DNA of 64,000 nucleotides from a virus, in the IMG/VR virus record IMGVR_UViG_3300018080_000105, positions 120,022 to 184,021 of that record. One strand, 5' to 3'. A program made the position numbers and the translations under genes. The notes beneath the pieces were generated by a model. That model was not told where the DNA came from, searched no databases, and worked only from the letters and a program-made list of their open reading frames with translations. Below are positions 2,669-50,683 of the stretch, in pieces (the stretch's first letter is position 1; every line of letters begins with the position of its first letter).

Positions 2669-3189
2669 TCTGCGCCTCCGTCGTCCTTCAGGTAATCTTC
2701 CGTGGCAATGATGTCATCGGCCTCTTGGTCGATCACTGCCTGTTCTTCCTCAGTCCGGGGCTCTTCTGCCGCCAACTGTGATTCTTCACCACCCGTAGTC
2801 GCCTCGGCGTCGATCTGAGACTGACCAATTTCATCATCGGTGACTTCCTCCTCTGCGGCAGCGAGATTCTCGATCTCGTCACAGACCACAGCATACAGCG
2901 TTTCGTCCTCTGAATAGAGTCGCTGCATCTCAGCGTCGTACTCTGCCCCGTCCAGCTCCATCATCTGGGCAGCTGCTGCTGCTGCCTGCTCACGAAGCTG
3001 CTCAGGCGTACGCGCCGGGGTTGGCGGCGTCTCGACCGCTGATTCAGTAGACTTCGCAGGGTCAGTTACCGTGGCGGCCTCGGCCGGCTCTTCGGTCTTA
3101 ACTTGGCGAAATGTGGAAAGGCGGCCTGTCTGTGTGTTTTCTTCCTTCTCACGCAGGCGCTGGCGATATTCGATAGAACTCATGGTCAC
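2665..3189 (-). CDS. acidic low-complexity hypothetical protein
   Basis: 174 aa, E/D/A-rich; coupled by overlap to both neighbours. Confidence 0.75.
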   Translation of the reverse strand: MTMSSIEYRQRLREKEENTQTGRLSTFRQVKTEEPAEAATVTDPAKSTESAVETPPTPARTPEQLREQAAAAAAQMMELDGAEYDAEMQRLYSEDETLYAVVCDEIENLAAAEEEVTDDEIGQSQIDAEATTGGEESQLAAEEPRTEEEQAVIDQEADDIIATEDYLKDDGGAE

Positions 3190-8944: not shown

Positions 8945-10334
8945 GCTGACGTTTCCTTTTTGCAGGCCGACGACGCCGTCGTGGCGAGCCGGCAGGCTTC
9001 CAGTCCTCTGTAGCCCAGAGGCTGGCACTGACATCCCACCGGCCCAACTCGTGAGGTGCAAACTGGAAGAACTCTTCCGGAGCAGTCTCACAATCCATGG
9101 CCAGTGCCTGATTGATGCAGATGTTTGAGGCGAACAGCGGGTCACGAGGAGACAACGCGGCTTCCAGGAGATCCTGGTCCGTTGTGCCTGCCTCGATCAG
9201 CGGACGAGATTTGCGGAGCAGCTCTCGCATCGCCCGAACAGCATCGTCCGGTTGGATCGCGTTGACAGGGTCTTTGACCCGCACCACGATCGGCTTATCC
9301 CGATGACGCATTGCATCGAGCAACACTTCATCACTTGCCAGCTCGGCATAAGCTCCGAGCCATTCACGCATGGCGTCCATTACCACCTGAATCCGTGCTT
9401 CCGCTTCTCGCGGATTGCACAGTGTGCCAGACGAGTCGGCTGTCTGCGCATCGCAGCCAGTCTCGTTCGCGGCATCCAGGGCTTTCAGCGTCTCAGGGAG
9501 ATCGATTCCTTTGCTGCTGGAAACAGCACTGGATCGATTCTCGAAAGACAGGGTCTTCAGGTCACGCACGGGGTTGTAGGTATGCACCCCTTGCATTTCA
9601 CTGAAGTCTGTGAGCAGCTGATGTGCCTGCCCCTTGTCACCGAAGTATTCGGTGGGCAGCAGGTACAGATGCGTGTTGTTGATCCCTTCGCCAGGGGCCA
9701 ACCACTTGTCAGCCCACAGTTCGTGAGCCAGGGCGGGGAAATCCTCTGTGGGGATCCCCATCACTTTGTCCCGGGTTTCGCCGCTCTCCAGAATGTAGAG
9801 CGACCGCAGAGCCGGAGTGTCCGGACAGTCCAGATGGGCTGGATCCGGTACACCTGCCCAGTGCCGGGGCATCGTAGGAACTGCGCTCAAAGCCCACTGC
9901 TGCGTGGCAGCTTTGGCCAGTTCCCGGTCAAGTCCCAGACCCAGACGAGTCCACTCGCCGGCCGGGCGAGCTTTGGGATCAGTGACCGTTCCTTCGTCGC
10001 GAGGATCCAGCCGACGTCCGAACGCCCCCTTCTTCGGGTTCTGCTCGAAGTCATGGACCATGCGAATCTGGTCGTAACAAATCACGTTATCAACCACACG
10101 TGCGGTTACGCACCTCAGCTCAATCGACTCCCCGCGTTTGGCTCTCGGGTTGTCATGCCGTGACATGACCATCATGGACACCTTCCCAACAGGGAGGAGT
10201 GTCTCACCCCGAGTGTTCCAGGTCGCACCCCAGACGCCGCGCATAGCGGCACGCTGTTCGTCACTACGACGGACAACCTGGTAGTAGTGCTTCTGGGACA
10301 GATCTTCTTTTCTGGTACGGCTGCGGTTCGACAT
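8928..10334 (-). CDS. hypothetical protein (~468 aa)
   Basis: Long ORF; ATG at 10334 has a GGAG SD at 6 nt; no recognised motif. Confidence 0.8.
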   Translation of the reverse strand: MSNRSRTRKEDLSQKHYYQVVRRSDEQRAAMRGVWGATWNTRGETLLPVGKVSMMVMSRHDNPRAKRGESIELRCVTARVVDNVICYDQIRMVHDFEQNPKKGAFGRRLDPRDEGTVTDPKARPAGEWTRLGLGLDRELAKAATQQWALSAVPTMPRHWAGVPDPAHLDCPDTPALRSLYILESGETRDKVMGIPTEDFPALAHELWADKWLAPGEGINNTHLYLLPTEYFGDKGQAHQLLTDFSEMQGVHTYNPVRDLKTLSFENRSSAVSSSKGIDLPETLKALDAANETGCDAQTADSSGTLCNPREAEARIQVVMDAMREWLGAYAELASDEVLLDAMRHRDKPIVVRVKDPVNAIQPDDAVRAMRELLRKSRPLIEAGTTDQDLLEAALSPRDPLFASNICINQALAMDCETAPEEFFQFAPHELGRWDVSASLWATEDWKPAGSPRRRRRPAKRKRQHVESR

Positions 10335-10358
10335 CGTTGACTCCATAGTATGGGCCAT

Positions 10359-10389
10359 AAAAAAATCCATGAGCAGTCAAACTCATGGA
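10359..10389 (-). terminator. terminator-like hairpin directly upstream of gene 8928-10334
   Basis: TCCATGAG(10366-10373)/CTCATGGA(10382-10389) stem followed by T7 on the minus strand. Confidence 0.55.
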
Positions 10390-10447
10390 CGTCCACTTGG
10401 GACAGGAAGGGTGCAACTAAGTTGCGGTTCTTCTGCGGGCAATACGT

Positions 10448-10477
10448 AAAACAACCCCAGCTCGAAAGCTGGGGTTG
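10448..10477 (-). terminator. rho-independent terminator
   Basis: Perfect 11-bp stem CAACCCCAGCT/AGCTGGGGTTG with a TTCG loop, followed by TTTT on the minus strand. Confidence 0.7.
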
Positions 10478-10622
10478 CCGAAGCCCGGTCGCGGGGCGAC
10501 CAGTCTCATTGAATCGTGTGCGAGAGGATCAACATTTCATAGTAGAGCTCCTTGGGGTTACGAGAATCAATCTCTCACGTGGTAACACGTCGCATGTTAC
10601 ATGCCGCAAAACGGCAGTCAAT

Positions 10623-11402
10623 TTAGCTGCCAAACATCGGCGTATCTTCGCCACTGGTGGCGGCTGGCGGAGGTGGCGGAGGTACCGGTAAAGCTGCCTG
10701 CTCTGACCCAGGAGGGCCTTCCTCCTCGTCATCCACAACAGCTTCCAGTTCGGCTTCCTCAGACTCCTGTTCTGCCGCTTCCGGATCATCAAGCGGATCA
10801 CCCACCCAACCAAAAGTTGCAGTGCCCGCCTCTGACGGATCGGGAATATCGAACAACGGAATGTTTCCAAACGGCGTCGTCAGGAACTTGTTGACTCCCT
10901 CGGTAATGCCCAATTGAGCTCCAAGAAACGGGAACAGGCAAACGTCCTGCCCGATCAACTCTTTGATCCGTGAAACCAATCCTTCCACAGTAGCGAACCG
11001 CTCACACGTCGGCCACTGATCATCAAACAACACAACCAGCAGAAACTCCTGCCCAGCCGCCCGACTATGATTAGCAACCTGTGCGATCAATGACTGTGTC
11101 GCGGCGTCCGCAATCGGCGTAGGGGCCGGTTGCACAGGTTGTTGACAAGGGGCGGGCGAGCCAGAGGGCAGCGTGGCAGAATCCGCAGGCACGGACTGCG
11201 GTCTTCGCCGAGGTGGGCGTCGCGGAGGTGGCGGAGGGGGCGCTGCGCCTTGCTCCTGCGACGAGTCGCCGTCGTCATCCAGCCCGCCCGCTGTACCGGT
11301 CCGCGGAGCCGCCGCAATGGCCCCCTCTGCAGGGAGTGCCGGCGCCGGTATCCTCTCGACCTGTATCGCTGTTGTGTCCGATTCATTCTGTTCCGTTGTC
11401 AT
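10623..11402 (-). CDS. hypothetical protein, Pro-rich/acidic termini
   Basis: ATG at 11402 (MTTEQNE) with an AGGAGG SD; folded-looking core FLLVVLFDD...FPFLG flanked by low-complexity sequence. Confidence 0.75.
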   Translation of the reverse strand: MTTEQNESDTTAIQVERIPAPALPAEGAIAAAPRTGTAGGLDDDGDSSQEQGAAPPPPPPRRPPRRRPQSVPADSATLPSGSPAPCQQPVQPAPTPIADAATQSLIAQVANHSRAAGQEFLLVVLFDDQWPTCERFATVEGLVSRIKELIGQDVCLFPFLGAQLGITEGVNKFLTTPFGNIPLFDIPDPSEAGTATFGWVGDPLDDPEAAEQESEEAELEAVVDDEEEGPPGSEQAALPVPPPPPPAATSGEDTPMFGS

Positions 11403-11667
11403 CTGCTGGTCCCTCCTGGTACAGCACAACCAATCCAAAGGTCAGGCACTTCAGCTGCAAACGATCTTCCACGCTGCCGTGCCACTGTGTGTGCATGCCC
11501 AGTTGCCCGGGATGAACGATCACATTGCCAGTCTGCTCCACCCACTTATCAATCTGGGCGTCGAGTTCCTCGGAGTTCGGACCTTCTTCGATCCGTTCCG
11601 CAAAGGAACCATCTTCCTGACGTTCAAACCAACGATTCTGCGTAAAGGTCTTGGTGCGGATCATCAC
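11383..11667 (-). CDS. hypothetical protein
   Basis: 94 aa; ATGA overlap with the upstream gene. Confidence 0.7.
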   Translation of the reverse strand: MMIRTKTFTQNRWFERQEDGSFAERIEEGPNSEELDAQIDKWVEQTGNVIVHPGQLGMHTQWHGSVEDRLQLKCLTFGLVVLYQEGPADDNGTE

Positions 11668-18290: not shown

Positions 18291-18642
18291 TGGTCGCCCT
18301 TTCGAGCGGAGACTGAACCAGCCGCCAAACACGGGCTGGTCTTGCATGTGTACCTTCAGGCAAAAATCTGACAAATTCCCACAGATCCTTGTCCTGAAAA
18401 ACCGCACCCATAAATCGCTTATCGACCACAGCCAGGTCGGCCGCGATCGCCGGGTGCATCCCCATGACAGCCAGCACCCGAGGCCCGGTCACCTCACCAT
18501 CCTGCATTGCAAGATGGTAGGCGACATATTTGGCCTCTGAGATCAACAACTGGCGAGTCGCCCGCAGGCGTGCCAACGCCTCATCACGAAGTCGGGCCTG
18601 TTCTTCCGGGTCGGGAAGATGTTGTGACGCATCTGTCATCAC
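18283..18642 (-). CDS. hypothetical protein
   Basis: 119 aa, ATGA-coupled to thyX. Confidence 0.7.
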   Translation of the reverse strand: MMTDASQHLPDPEEQARLRDEALARLRATRQLLISEAKYVAYHLAMQDGEVTGPRVLAVMGMHPAIAADLAVVDKRFMGAVFQDKDLWEFVRFLPEGTHARPARVWRLVQSPLERATSA

Positions 18643-27495: not shown

Positions 27496-30400
27496 TCACG
27501 CGCACACCAGTACCTCTGGCTGAATTCCGAGAGAACTCAGAAGTTCGTCAGAGGGATCTTCGCCCCAGTTGACTTGGACGTCGTAATCGATGCCGAAATG
27601 ATACGGCTCCGCGACATTCATCGGGGTATTGTCAAGGTACCGGGGCCATATCGGTACGCGCTGGACCATGTGCTGTCGCAACACGTTCTGCAGGAAATCC
27701 TGCAGCTCGGAAATTGGCACCTGAAACAGCAAAGCATCATGAATCTGCAGCAACAGTTTGTAACCGTACTGCGGATTATCCTGCTTATGCTTGTGAAAAT
27801 TGTAGATCGCCAGCCAGATCGCATCAGCGACCATGTTCTGAATCGGGAAGTTCTGCGACTGGCGCTCCTGTTCGCCAATCACGCCCCTGTCGTGGGCAGG
27901 GATGAACCGCCGCATACGGCCGAACGAACCAGCCATCCAACGATCCTCCTGGGATCGCCGACGACATTCTGCCAGGAACGCAGCAGTTCCCGGGTAGCGT
28001 ACGAAATACTGGTCGATCATCGCCTGACAATCATCGACGGAGACTTCAACACCCTCTTCCTTACACTGCCGTGCGATCGCCTCTGCGGATCGCCCGTAAG
28101 GAATACCGAAGTTCACGTTCTTCGCCGCCACTCGTAAAGGTGAGTGTCCGGCATTCTTCAGTCCCTTCTTGGTCGGGTCGCACTGAAGTTGGAACGTGTC
28201 AACGGCCGTGTGAGAGTGGATATCGTAGTGAAGAGGATCAGACTCGGGCAACGCATTACGTCGCACGTGTTCGATCATGTTGGGGTCGTCAGCAAGCCAG
28301 GCGATCCCCGCCAGCTCCGCCCCGGTGTAGTCAGCCTCGACCAGCACATGCCCCTCTTCCGCACAAAAGATCGTACGGATGGGCGAGAGATACAGTGCCT
28401 GCTCAAAGACGTCAACGTAATCACCACGTACCGTGGTTACGCCTTCCTCGTTGGTAACTTCGGTACCCAGAATACGAGAGTAGTCACCTTCACGACGTTT
28501 GGAGATATTCTGCAGCGGCGGACGGGAAGACGCCCCTCGCCCAGTTTCTTTGTTCTGGGAGATATGCGTATGGACCTTCCCGTCATGTTGTGCCGCCGCT
28601 GCGAGGCCTTTGTCATAGACAAGTGCCCCTTGGGCGTCACGCTTCCAACCCGTCCCGTCCTCATTCAGTACGGGTGGTCGCAACGGACCCTTCAAAACCT
28701 GGGTGATGAACTTTAGGTCGCGGAGCATCATCGCCAGGGGATTCTCATGGCCTAAAATCCCCAGTACCTCCTTGTCGGAACTCGGAGTGTACTTGTGCTG
28801 TTCTCCGCGGGTGATGATATCAGCCCACAGCTTCGACCGACGGCCGGTGCTTTTCACCGGTGTCAGTCCCAACGTTATAGACCCAGGCGGTCGAATGGAA
28901 ATCCGCTGCCCTGTTGTTTTGTCAACTTTCTTGGAGTAGTCATCCCCAAACAGGAATGCAACACACTGAGGAGTAGATTCCGGATTGAAGTCAGGCCACC
29001 CAATCTGCTCCCTGAAGTGGGCCAACAGACGGTCACGTGCATAAATGAACAACGTGGTCAACCGGTCCACTCGATCACGGTCCAACTTGATCCCAGTCAT
29101 CTCCATTTCCAGCACACCGAGACTGGCACAATGAGATCGCCAATATGGCTCCCAGGACGAAATACCGTTCCAGTCGGAGTCCAGCAACCCGCCGTCTTTC
29201 ATGTGCTCGATAGCGATGCGTCGCGTCACATCCGGGTCATACTGGGCGTAGTTATCGCCCCACTCAGGGTCGGTCGGCTCTGGGTGCAGAATCCACTGCG
29301 GAAGGAAACCATACCCCTCCAGATCCTCCTTCTTGATATTGTGCGCCGCACAGTACCCGGTAATGTGCGCTTTCAGCCGGGTGTCATACACAGGGGCCGA
29401 CGTCAGCCGTACAGTCATGTCGGTCAATCGGTACGAAGCAGTCTCGTTGACTGCATGGTATTGCAGTCCCGTGTCGAACCCGCCCTCTGTGCGGCACAGC
29501 TCTGGGGAGTCCGGCGGCGCGTACTCTTCACGAATGTCCAAACCTTCTGCAATCAGCCACGGAAGGTCAGCCCGCAAGAAGTGACCACCAGGCCGAGGAA
29601 ACCAACCACGATCCGGGTCGCGTTTCAAAAGACGCGTCAACTCATGGATTGCGTGGCCGATAGACGGCTTGAACGCCGGCTCCCCGCCCTGGTGGCGTAG
29701 CACAACATTGATACCCTCGCCGTGCTTGGAACTGAACTGAATGTTCCGTAAATAAGAACCAGGGTTCCCCGGGTGTTCCCCTTCCCACTCGCCGTCGACC
29801 GCAATCACCCGACGCCATGGGTCAGGATCAGCCATGATCTCATCCACAATCGCCTTCAGTTCGCGATGCTTGTAGATATTGCGGTGATCAATGAACGACT
29901 CCTGCTTCCCGATATCCGCGCCACGAGTCAGGGCAATGAACTGCCCGACCTGCGCACGGAACTCAGGATAAGTCTCAGGGGTACGCCACACAGCGCCTGG
30001 CGCTGTCGCGGCCATCACCTTGATCGTGTGATAGCACGGCTCTTCATCCAGCGTACTATGCAGCGGGATGATGATTTCCTCCACACGACCAGTCATCGCC
30101 TGCACACCGTAACTCGTCCCCAGCAGCCACTTCGAGGCGTCGGAGCCGAGGCACAACAGATACTTCGGACGCACCAGTCGCAGGGTCTGCTGCAGAAGAA
30201 CGTTGCAATCTTTCTTGTGGGCCATTGGCAACGAGTCAGACTGCGGATCCAGCTGCGGCCAGTGAACCAGATTATCAACGTAGAACGCATCACGTTCCCG
30301 TCCAACATCCCACTCGTCGAGAGCATCCATCAAAATCTGGGCACTCTCGCCGACAAAGTTTCGCCGTTGTGCGACGTCGTCTTTGCCGGGCATCTTCCCG

Positions 30401-49812: not shown

Positions 49813-50108
49813 ACGACGTCCTTCGAGCGAATTTTGTGCACATCCTGTTTCATGCGTTTGTACATGGCGAGCTGTTCATCGATGTGGGCCTTCAACGCCC
49901 GCTTCGCACAGCGGAAGTTCTTGAACCACCTCCCATCTTTGCCGCAAATGACTCCTCCTCCCCCTGGATGGTCCGGGTGGGAGGGGTCCAGTTCTCCGTT
50001 CTCGTCAAAGCGAAGAGGCTCACCGGATTCGCCGCATTCCGCGGTTTCGATTCCGTAGTGAGCCTCGTTGCATTCATGCCATCCATAGACTTGGTGGCTT
50101 TTTCTCAC
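49809..50108 (-). CDS. hypothetical protein
   Basis: 99 aa, overlap-coupled on both sides. Confidence 0.65.
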   Translation of the reverse strand: MRKSHQVYGWHECNEAHYGIETAECGESGEPLRFDENGELDPSHPDHPGGGGVICGKDGRWFKNFRCAKRALKAHIDEQLAMYKRMKQDVHKIRSKDVV

Positions 50109-50683
50109 GTCAACATTTTCTCCTCGAAATGATGTTCGATGGGTTCTCTGTCGAAGATGATCTCCTGCTGCCCGCAGGCCACATGATCAATATCGGCAGC
50201 GTAGTCTGGTGTTCCGTCATTGTTCAGGTGGTAGTGCAAGTCTTCCACAATGACGAACGGGCGACCACATTCTGCACAGACCCATTCACGATGGGGCCAG
50301 AAGAATACGCCGTCTGGGGTTAGCAGCACCATCTGTGCCGCGTCTACTTTGGTGTTTGTCTCCAGGTCACGAAATCCGTCACCCTTCTTAGGGTCGCAGC
50401 CCAGTTGTCTCGCTGAAGGGTCGTTGCCATTCAGTCGCTGCGCTGCCAGCCCGGCGGCCGTGTCTTCCGGGAACCATGTCCCGCGAAGCCATTGGAAAAC
50501 CTGCCGGTGCTCGGTGATGATGTGCTCTCGTTGCTTTGGCGTAGCGTGTTTGAATTTCACTCCACCGAGGGCGACGATTTTGCGATACGCGATAACGCGC
50601 TCTTTGTAGCTGATGCTCCACTGGATGTCCGGACGATTGAGGTTCCGGTACACCTTGATCGGCATCACTGTCTCATCAGACAT
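50105..50683 (-). CDS. hypothetical protein
   Basis: 192 aa; begins 3 nt after the 17-nt motif; C-terminal CAECG. Confidence 0.7.
   Translation of the reverse strand: MSDETVMPIKVYRNLNRPDIQWSISYKERVIAYRKIVALGGVKFKHATPKQREHIITEHRQVFQWLRGTWFPEDTAAGLAAQRLNGNDPSARQLGCDPKKGDGFRDLETNTKVDAAQMVLLTPDGVFFWPHREWVCAECGRPFVIVEDLHYHLNNDGTPDYAADIDHVACGQQEIIFDREPIEHHFEEKMLT

Follow-up and report, generated by a model that had tools for sequence, protein, structure and literature searches.

The subject of the present study is a spacer of 288 nucleotides (nt) in the DNA of a virus. The window, that is the whole stretch that was analysed, is 64,000 nt long and covers positions 120022-184021 of the 184,021-base virus record IMGVR_UViG_3300018080_000105, which is linear and has an estimated completeness of 89%. 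The spacer is located at 10335-10622 of the window on the minus strand and is flanked by two genes of the same strand, P0002 upstream and P0001 downstream. Our analysis indicates, with a probability of roughly 0.55, that the spacer is a 5' leader with premature termination and belongs to a conserved transcription unit of a group of phages of about 200 kilobases (kb), from which a small gene has been lost in the present phage. A promoter of the phage group, CTAAAT-N17-CATGT, overlapping the stop codon of P0002, would start an RNA near 10591, and this leader RNA would bear a strong ribosome site and a three-codon open reading frame (mini-ORF). In the nearest relatives the mini-ORF would hand ribosomes through an overlapping stop-start to the gene of a small basic protein of 61-114 amino acids, and transcription would continue into the gene of the P0001 family. 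In the present phage the body of the small gene appears to be replaced by a hairpin and two intrinsic terminators, so that most transcripts, those of this promoter as well as those arriving from upstream, should end at terminator 1 or 2. P0001 would be supplied by read-through past the terminators and the short structured RNA would be the premature-termination product of the 5' untranslated region (UTR). The mini-ORF would be an inherited translation-start module and not a sensor.

A small gene of the related loci is absent from the present record

Only four relatives of P0001 were found among 5.8 billion proteins, the closest being 70% identical (P0003/P0008), and a direct search for their DNA found none in viral_contigs, metagenome_contigs and genome_contigs. 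A scan based on P0002 returned only the records G003 and G001, and tblastn of P0001, P0002 and the small protein of record G007 against cultured phages gave no match. Relatives were collected by means of the large terminase, which gave 86 related stretches, and 80 loci were kept. Homologues of P0001 are present in 4 of 24 records. Those of G003 (37% identity) and G001 (32%) are clear, and those of G007 and G020 are weak C-terminal matches. In both G003 and G001 a P0002 homologue is followed, after some 400 nt, by a P0001 homologue, and the interval holds a small ORF which is 52% identical between the two records.

A profile of this small-gene family was built from four proteins and run over 50 records, namely 49 relatives (taken from the 80 terminase loci, largest first) and the present one. 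It was found that 14 of the 50 records match the profile, including all eight of those that are at least 90% complete. A P0002 homologue immediately precedes the small gene in 13 of these 14 loci, and P0001 homologues follow downstream in G003 and G001. The encoded proteins are small (61-114 residues) and basic, with an N-terminus like M-R-x-V-x-F-K-G-R-P-V-R-R-Q, and they match nothing in Pfam or PHROG. Its members include those at 2861-3097 of locus L082, 2410-2619 of L083, 2552-2797 of L084 and 2456-2776 of L085, all on the minus strand, and those of L099-L111.

The small gene is missing from the present record, in which the profile finds no match. A search with hmmsearch --max of 4250 six-frame ORFs of the record (25 codons or longer) gave a best E-value of 0.83, at an unrelated place. 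The frames of the spacer rank 147 to 3565 of 3590 in the profile search, the spacer's own frame being at rank 2559. A small gene hidden in the spacer was rejected on this ground, as the family profile and a two-sequence profile both place the spacer frames far down. It is extremely unlikely that the spacer holds some other protein gene, whether in the plus-strand ORF of 113 codons (10350-10691), in the frame behind the TGA (10528-10172) or in an ORF of 30 codons (10509-10417). All three frames are open, and an overlap of the small gene with the gene that follows it is seen in G007-like relatives. However, the codon-usage scores of the three frames are -0.17, -0.31 and -0.33 as compared to +0.10 +/- 0.19 for real small genes, +0.23 for P0001 and +0.17 for P0002. 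Moreover, no ATG, GTG or TTG occurs in frame behind the TGA before 10396, and none of the frames is similar to the small gene by the family profile.

A possible but weak relic of the small gene, corresponding to its first ~17 codons (RTRFNETGRPATGLRQ.P), is present at 10472-10522 on the minus strand, in frame behind the TGA. In a frameshift-aware alignment to G001 it scored 36 as compared to 23.6 +/- 3.4 for shuffled sequences, with 0 of 60 shuffles as good, and with G003 5 of 60 shuffles were as good. When aligned locally without frameshifts, 12 and 33 of 300 shuffles, respectively, were as good. Matches noticed by eye further along this frame were lost in the frameshift-aware alignment, where only the first ~17 codons score, and weakly.

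A promoter-like motif is shared by the phage group

The motif CTAAAT-N17-CATGT is located at 10626-10599 on the minus strand, and the stop codon of P0002 (TAA, 10625-10623) falls inside its first block. The same motif, with a spacer of exactly 17 nt, was observed at or just after the stop of the P0002-like gene in 14 of 14 related loci. The pattern TAAAY-N17-CATRT has 79 matches in 11 records as compared to 9 for the reversed control, and nearly all of them are on the gene strand; G007, for example, has 0 forward and 8 reverse matches, and G010 has 10 forward and 1 reverse. Forty-two copies were aligned, 40 from relatives (of 77 matches there) and 2 from the present record. The related copies were picked by eye, leaving out those that plainly differ, all those of G005, G008 and G011 and four at loci already used, which biases the set toward a clean consensus. 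This consensus, gCTAAAT(a/t)...g.CAAAA..c.GGCATAT..A.TG, has conserved positions beyond the search pattern. An ORF led by a Shine-Dalgarno (SD) sequence begins 22-191 nt downstream in 38 of the 40 related copies, and in most of the 40 a hairpin starts 6-13 nt past the motif. The copy at 10626-10599 belongs to the class CTAAAT-N17-CATAT, as defined here, by its two blocks with the fixed 17-nt spacing, with a G for A in block 2. It is also intergenic, on the gene strand and shortly 5' of an SD-led ORF, the first such ORF being the mini-ORF.

The anatomy of these copies points to a promoter class of the phage group, and for this uncultured group of ~200-kb phages the 42 aligned copies, most of them followed by 5' hairpins and small ORFs, add a putative promoter class to what is available. 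The motif may be the recognition sequence of a phage-encoded polymerase with its sigma factor, or it may be an early promoter class. RNA polymerase subunits of the bacterial type have been found in the virion of the cultured relative Arash, and that paper describes no promoter (PMC10585845).

By analogy with sigma-70-type spacing, transcription would start at about 10591 +/- 3 (region 10577-10600, minus strand). A sigma-70 scan also calls TTGACT-16-TAACAT at this motif, and it calls no minus-strand site downstream of 10594 within the scanned 9800-11200. The promoter-like motif and this putative start change the meaning of two stems, at 10602-10616 and 10582-10600 on the minus strand, which the original prediction had counted among the parts of a structured RNA. 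Both stems exist in sequence and fold. However, the first (UGCCG/CGGCA) is inside the 17-nt promoter spacer and the second, of 8 base pairs (bp), straddles the second, -10-like block and the putative start, and neither stands as a part of the RNA. An RNA beginning near 10590 can form, in predicted folds, an alternative 5'-terminal hairpin of 5 bp at 10577-10590.

In the related ~200-kb phages the motif usually occurs 20-110 nt upstream of small SD-led ORFs, often with a hairpin directly after it (loci L112-L151). The second copy of the present record is at 27797-27823 of the genome, outside the window. In its region (27700-27905, minus strand) a terminator with a UUCG loop is found upstream of the motif, and a hairpin and then a hairpin of -21 kcal/mol with a U-run follow it. 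The SD-led ORF behind this copy is rich in cysteine pairs (CxxC...CPCC). In G022 (L090, 1390-1630, minus strand) and G009 (L092, 1400-1670, plus strand) about six palindromes of 25-30 nt, of the type TTGACTGCCG..CGGCAGTCAA and of a second type, occupy a spacer of ~300 nt beside a divergent gene start and resemble an operator or iteron array. The promoter spacer of the present phage is alike in 20 of 22 bases to this array (22-nt match, E-value 0.02-0.05 per genome). No palindrome array of this kind occurs in the present genome, and for that reason the match may be due to chance.

Two predicted intrinsic terminators occupy the place of the small gene

Terminator 1 (10447-10477, minus strand) has arms at 10467-10477 and 10452-10462, which form 11 bp with 100% complementarity around a UUCG loop and are followed by UUUUACGU. 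It has a CCCC/GGGG core and then UUUU (UUGUUUU when the stem base is counted), and the hairpin has a predicted stability of -19 to -21 kcal/mol. Terminator 2 (10359-10390, minus strand) was flagged by a terminator scan and consists of arms at 10382-10389 and 10366-10373 with a T7 run at 10365-10359. Its stem of 9-10 bp precedes 7 U, its stability is about -14.5 kcal/mol, and it ends 24 nt 5' of the start codon of P0001. Thus, both elements have the G+C-rich hairpin and the directly following U-run of an intrinsic terminator and are canonical, in agreement with the original prediction of an 11-bp UUCG terminator and of a second stem with T7 at 10359-10389. A small hairpin of 5 bp, GCAAC-UUA-GUUGC (10413-10425, minus strand), is present between the two. 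A strong hairpin with a U-run was also observed between this promoter and the small gene in G003 and G010. By a loose rule, a terminator-like hairpin occurs in 6 of the 40 related leaders and in both leaders of the present record.

Counted from the promoter, the predicted RNAs would be ~145 nt long at terminator 1 and about 230-232 nt at terminator 2. A promoter-like motif at the 5' edge and a canonical hairpin with its U-run ~145 nt downstream make a discrete short RNA a reasonable prediction, and to this extent the earlier proposal of an RNA ending at the first terminator holds. With a terminator less than 250 nt from the start and a gene of the same strand downstream, the spacer falls, by prediction only, among the premature-termination RNAs of 5' UTRs. 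The region past terminator 2 has no room for a separate promoter of P0001 and the sigma-70 scan calls none below 10594, so that P0001 seems to depend on read-through, either from the conserved promoter or from transcription that begins further upstream.

The earlier proposal had further suggested that the RNA guides Nop or RAMP proteins, and this suggestion fails. The families PF01798 (Nop) and PF03787 (RAMPs) have no match in the 184-kb record, where the controls were positive, and the scan of 56 window ORFs gave none either. The 288 nt contain neither a C box (RUGAUGA) nor a D box or CUGA, which speaks against a C/D-box guide RNA. In the same way, a CRISPR RNA or RAMP guide is not favoured, as the spacer has no direct repeats within it and no second copy in the genome, where it recurs only in chance words of 10-17 nt. 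C/D-box guide RNAs of Nop proteins and CRISPR RNAs of RAMP proteins have only the size range of the RNA in common with the spacer.

It is possible that the spacer is only the scar of a gene loss, in which the small gene decayed or was replaced. The hairpins would then only terminate the upstream operon, and neither the promoter motif nor the mini-ORF would have a role today. The small gene is gone while its flanks are retained, a weak 5' relic stands in frame behind the TGA, the promoter departs from the group consensus in its second block and the structure is unique to this phage. On the other hand, the neighbouring proteins are only ~35% identical to their homologues, and over such a distance unselected DNA should have lost a 28-nt motif with its exact spacing and a perfect AAGGAG-7-ATGAAA. 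Decay would also leave P0001 without an evident promoter, and perfect hairpins of 11 and 9 bp with U-runs are not products of decay. We consider a mere scar unlikely. The locus appears to be a natural case in which a conserved small gene has been replaced by terminators while promoter and ribosome site were kept. It can serve as a template to ask whether a phage-encoded polymerase obeys intrinsic terminators.

Comparable leaders are known from cultured phages. A study of virulent Pseudomonas phages reports 42 terminators in 5' UTRs. For 34 of these it gives both a short product of less than 250 nt and a long read-through product, and the short RNAs share their 5' end with the longer mRNAs (PMC10914365, Putzeys et al. 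2024). The study also gives 29 non-coding RNA candidates in six phages and the confirmation by northern blot of T102 (a 71-nt RNA) and TU237 (141 nt) of phiKZ (PMC10914365). Leader RNAs like the predicted one are known from large virulent phages, and by itself it is not surprising. Like the phiKZ-type RNAs, the spacer has a promoter, an intrinsic terminator within 250 nt and a gene on the same strand, and it is predicted to give a short RNA and a read-through mRNA with a common 5' end. The phiKZ RNAs were mapped and seen on northern blots, whereas those of the spacer are predicted. The spacer also differs in that it has two serial terminators and a mini-ORF with a strong ribosome site, and comparison with relatives indicates that a protein gene formerly occupied its place.

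A further parallel is the pR'-tR' leader of lambda ('6S RNA') with Q antitermination, in which a constitutive promoter gives a short terminated leader of one to two hundred nt and the downstream genes need read-through. The likeness lies in the terminated short leader and in the dependence on read-through. The difference is that 34 of the 40 related copies of the present motif have no terminator in the leader. In addition, no Q-like protein or binding site was found, although no search was aimed at either.

The mini-ORF probably corresponds to a translation-start element of the relatives

The SD sequence AAGGAG (10553-10548) is placed 7 nt 5' of the mini-ORF ATG AAA TGT TGA (10540-10529, M-K-C-stop), both on the minus strand and just as they had first been read, and no start codon overlaps the stop. 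Similar elements are present at the start of the small gene in the nearest relatives. G003 has GAGGT, 5 nt, and ATG AAA ACT CAA TGA (MKTQ-stop). G001 has GGAGGA, 7 nt, and ATG AAA GCG AAC TGA (MKAN-stop). In each case the small gene starts at an ATG that shares bases with this TGA. This ATG is 16-20 nt from the SD, too far for direct service, which suggests that ribosomes are handed over, presumably by termination and re-initiation. The M-K-C mini-ORF of the present phage is better explained as the probable counterpart of MKTQ-stop and MKAN-stop. In more distant relatives, other short ORFs that overlap the small-gene start were seen by eye, namely M-F-A-stop in the G007 group, M-R-A-stop in G005, M-G-F-A-stop in G011 and ORFs of 8-9 codons in G006 and G020; by the same reading by eye there is none in G022, G009 and G018.

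Most relatives (L099-L107, about 20 nt before position 1501) have an ORF of 3-9 codons, for example GTG or ATG TTT GCG TAA, at the best distance from the SD, and this ORF runs in another frame across the start codon (TTG, GTG or ATG) of the small gene. An insertion of 3 nt in G011 leaves this mini-ORF in frame. The arrangement could reflect coupling, competition or a frameshift.

Translational coupling through an upstream mini-cistron with an overlapping stop-start (ATGA or TGATG) is a general principle. In G003 and G001 the SD serves an ORF of 4 codons, its TGA overlaps the ATG of the small gene, and no separate SD is placed close enough to serve the small gene. The present phage retains the SD and ATG AAA; no start codon overlaps or follows the stop and there is nothing to couple. 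The mini-ORF that recurs in the relatives where the small gene begins is a candidate device for translational coupling.

The original prediction had offered a second role for the mini-ORF, that of a ribosome-dependent attenuator in which translation of the three codons decides between terminators 1 and 2. A strong SD and a mini-ORF do lie upstream of the terminators, and in the minimum free energy (MFE) fold the mini-ORF, with its ATG paired, sits within a long helix that translation would open. However, the stop of the mini-ORF is 52 nt upstream of terminator 1. The 11 pairs of terminator 1 keep probabilities of 0.85-1.0 whether or not the footprint of the ribosome on the mini-ORF (10516-10555) is forced single-stranded, and until the 3' arm has been transcribed the 5' arm is mostly unpaired, with nothing else competing for it. 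The competing, ribosome-dependent helix of a leader-peptide attenuator was therefore not found, and as the pairing of terminator 1 is independent of the footprint, the attenuator has no structural support. Moreover, the mini-ORF of G003 and G001 ends on the ATG of a gene and not ahead of a terminator, and three codons leave no room for regulatory codons. Such an attenuator is very unlikely. Leader-peptide attenuators of the trp, pyrBI and erm types have a short translated ORF before a terminator in the 5' leader. The spacer resembles them in having a short ORF before a terminator, and differs in its three codons, in the 52-nt gap and in having no alternative helices that link ORF and terminator.

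The spacer is predicted to be highly structured in this phage

The MFE of the spacer is -106.5 kcal/mol as compared to -78.4 +/- 4.95 for 200 dinucleotide shuffles (z = -5.67, 0 of 200 as good). The phage record has 20 co-directional spacers in the range of 120-450 nt, and of these it has the lowest z (-4.4). The opposite strand gives z = -4.21 and also folds well, so that folding alone does not decide the strand. A model RNA of 147 nt (10590-10444) gives z = -4.32, with 0 of 200 shuffles as good, and folds in three parts, namely a long helix around the SD and mini-ORF, the hairpin H3 and terminator 1. H3 has arms at 10482-10492 and 10496-10506 on the minus strand, which are 82% complementary and fold, and it is the extended form (10482-10506) of a stem first noticed at 10487-10501. 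A CUUCGG motif had been noticed as well. The string is present at 10483-10478, but the predicted folds do not make a tetraloop of it and instead pair its CUU at the foot of the stem before it.

The heptamer AACCCCA is found both ahead of the SD and within the 5' arm of terminator 1. A rough estimate shows that 288 nt should contain a repeated 7-mer by chance, and it was not counted. Two more spacers with genes of the same strand have unusually stable predicted folds (60 shuffles), at 18408-18638 of the window (minus strand, z = -3.45) and at 50020-50232 of the genome (minus strand, z = -3.86).

An Rfam search, which the original prediction had called for, found no family at gathering score in the 64-kb window. 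The best sub-threshold match in 10200-10750 (E-value up to 10) was a 36-nt piece of the rnk leader on terminator 1, with 24.1 bits against the 55 required, and matches of sR30 and sR43 (E-value 3.5-7.5) fall in the coding sequence of P0002. The structured part of the spacer has no homologue in 43 related records, and blastn of the spacer against cultured phages gave no match. No RNA run was listed among the sequencing runs that contain the stretch. One sequencing contig of 47 kb, which may be the source itself, matches the stretch without difference and two of 151-154 nt, from two other runs, are identical over 10303-10456; these three contigs, which cover all or part of the stretch, hold no usable variation for a covariation analysis. 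A leader structure conserved between phages was rejected, as G001 and G003 do not have the fold of the present phage.

These results also bear on a different role of the RNA. A stand-alone functional small RNA of ~145 nt may have replaced the small gene and may act in trans, or with the mini-ORF as a dual-function RNA, on targets of the phage or the host. The promoter and the strong terminator have the spacing of a small RNA. The 147-nt model RNA with its three domains (z = -4.32) comes from the most structured of the 20 spacers, the SD and ATG AAA are intact though the gene that they served is gone, and short 5'-UTR RNAs of phiKZ are described as abundant and suspected regulators (PMC10914365). 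However, the structured part has no homologue in the 43 related records or in Rfam, and hence neither conservation nor covariation, no target was found although no search was aimed at one, plain premature termination predicts the same architecture, and the kept SD and ATG may merely reflect a recent loss. A functional small RNA is thus conceivable but doubtful. Its most far-reaching form, in which a small gene conserved in every near-complete relative examined has been swapped for a working RNA of ~145 nt under the same promoter, with the SD and M-K-C retained, and in which this RNA would be a regulator or a decoy for ribosome binding, appears quite improbable.

For the leader with premature termination and a lost small gene, several observations point the other way. 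The record is 89% complete, and the small gene could lie in the missing 11%. The relic is weak and is missed by the family profile. The second block of the promoter reads CATGT in both copies of the present record and CATAT in 40 of 40 related copies, and the motif occurs 2 times in the record as compared to 3-15 times in each relative. Only 6 of 40 related leaders carry a terminator-like hairpin, so that termination in the leader is not a general trait of the class. The fold is not shared, the leader of G001 being no better than shuffles (z = +0.59) and that of G003 (z = -5.23) owing its stability to a single terminator, and the opposite strand of the spacer folds nearly as well as the minus strand. 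Finally, the sequences show the elements, the promoter class, the synteny and the lack of the small gene in the record, whereas an active promoter, its start site, termination at either hairpin, read-through and, in the relatives, the hand-over of ribosomes are deduced.

Flanking genes and content of the window

P0001 (8928-10334, minus strand) encodes 468 amino acids. Its ATG at 10334 is preceded by GGAG at 10344-10341 (region 10332-10344), and its N-terminus, MSNRSRTRK, agrees with the starts of the homologues in G003 and G001. P0002 occupies 10623-11438 on the minus strand, and neither protein has a Pfam or PHROG match. In a Pfam scan of 56 window ORFs, the window was found to hold a large-phage module for replication and nucleotide metabolism. 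The matches comprise a family A DNA polymerase with a UDG domain, a helicase, RecA-like and SMC-like proteins, a ligase, ThyX, a dUTPase, a tubulin-like protein and the large terminase. No tRNA genes were found in the window.

P0002 is proline-rich and acidic at both ends. Its core, at about residues 128-216 (...TPFGNIPLFDIP...GWVGDPL), is conserved across the phage group. The P0002-like proteins of the relatives have a conserved end, ...VFDxxLPDPDS, and those of the nearest relatives end in ...GDTPMF.

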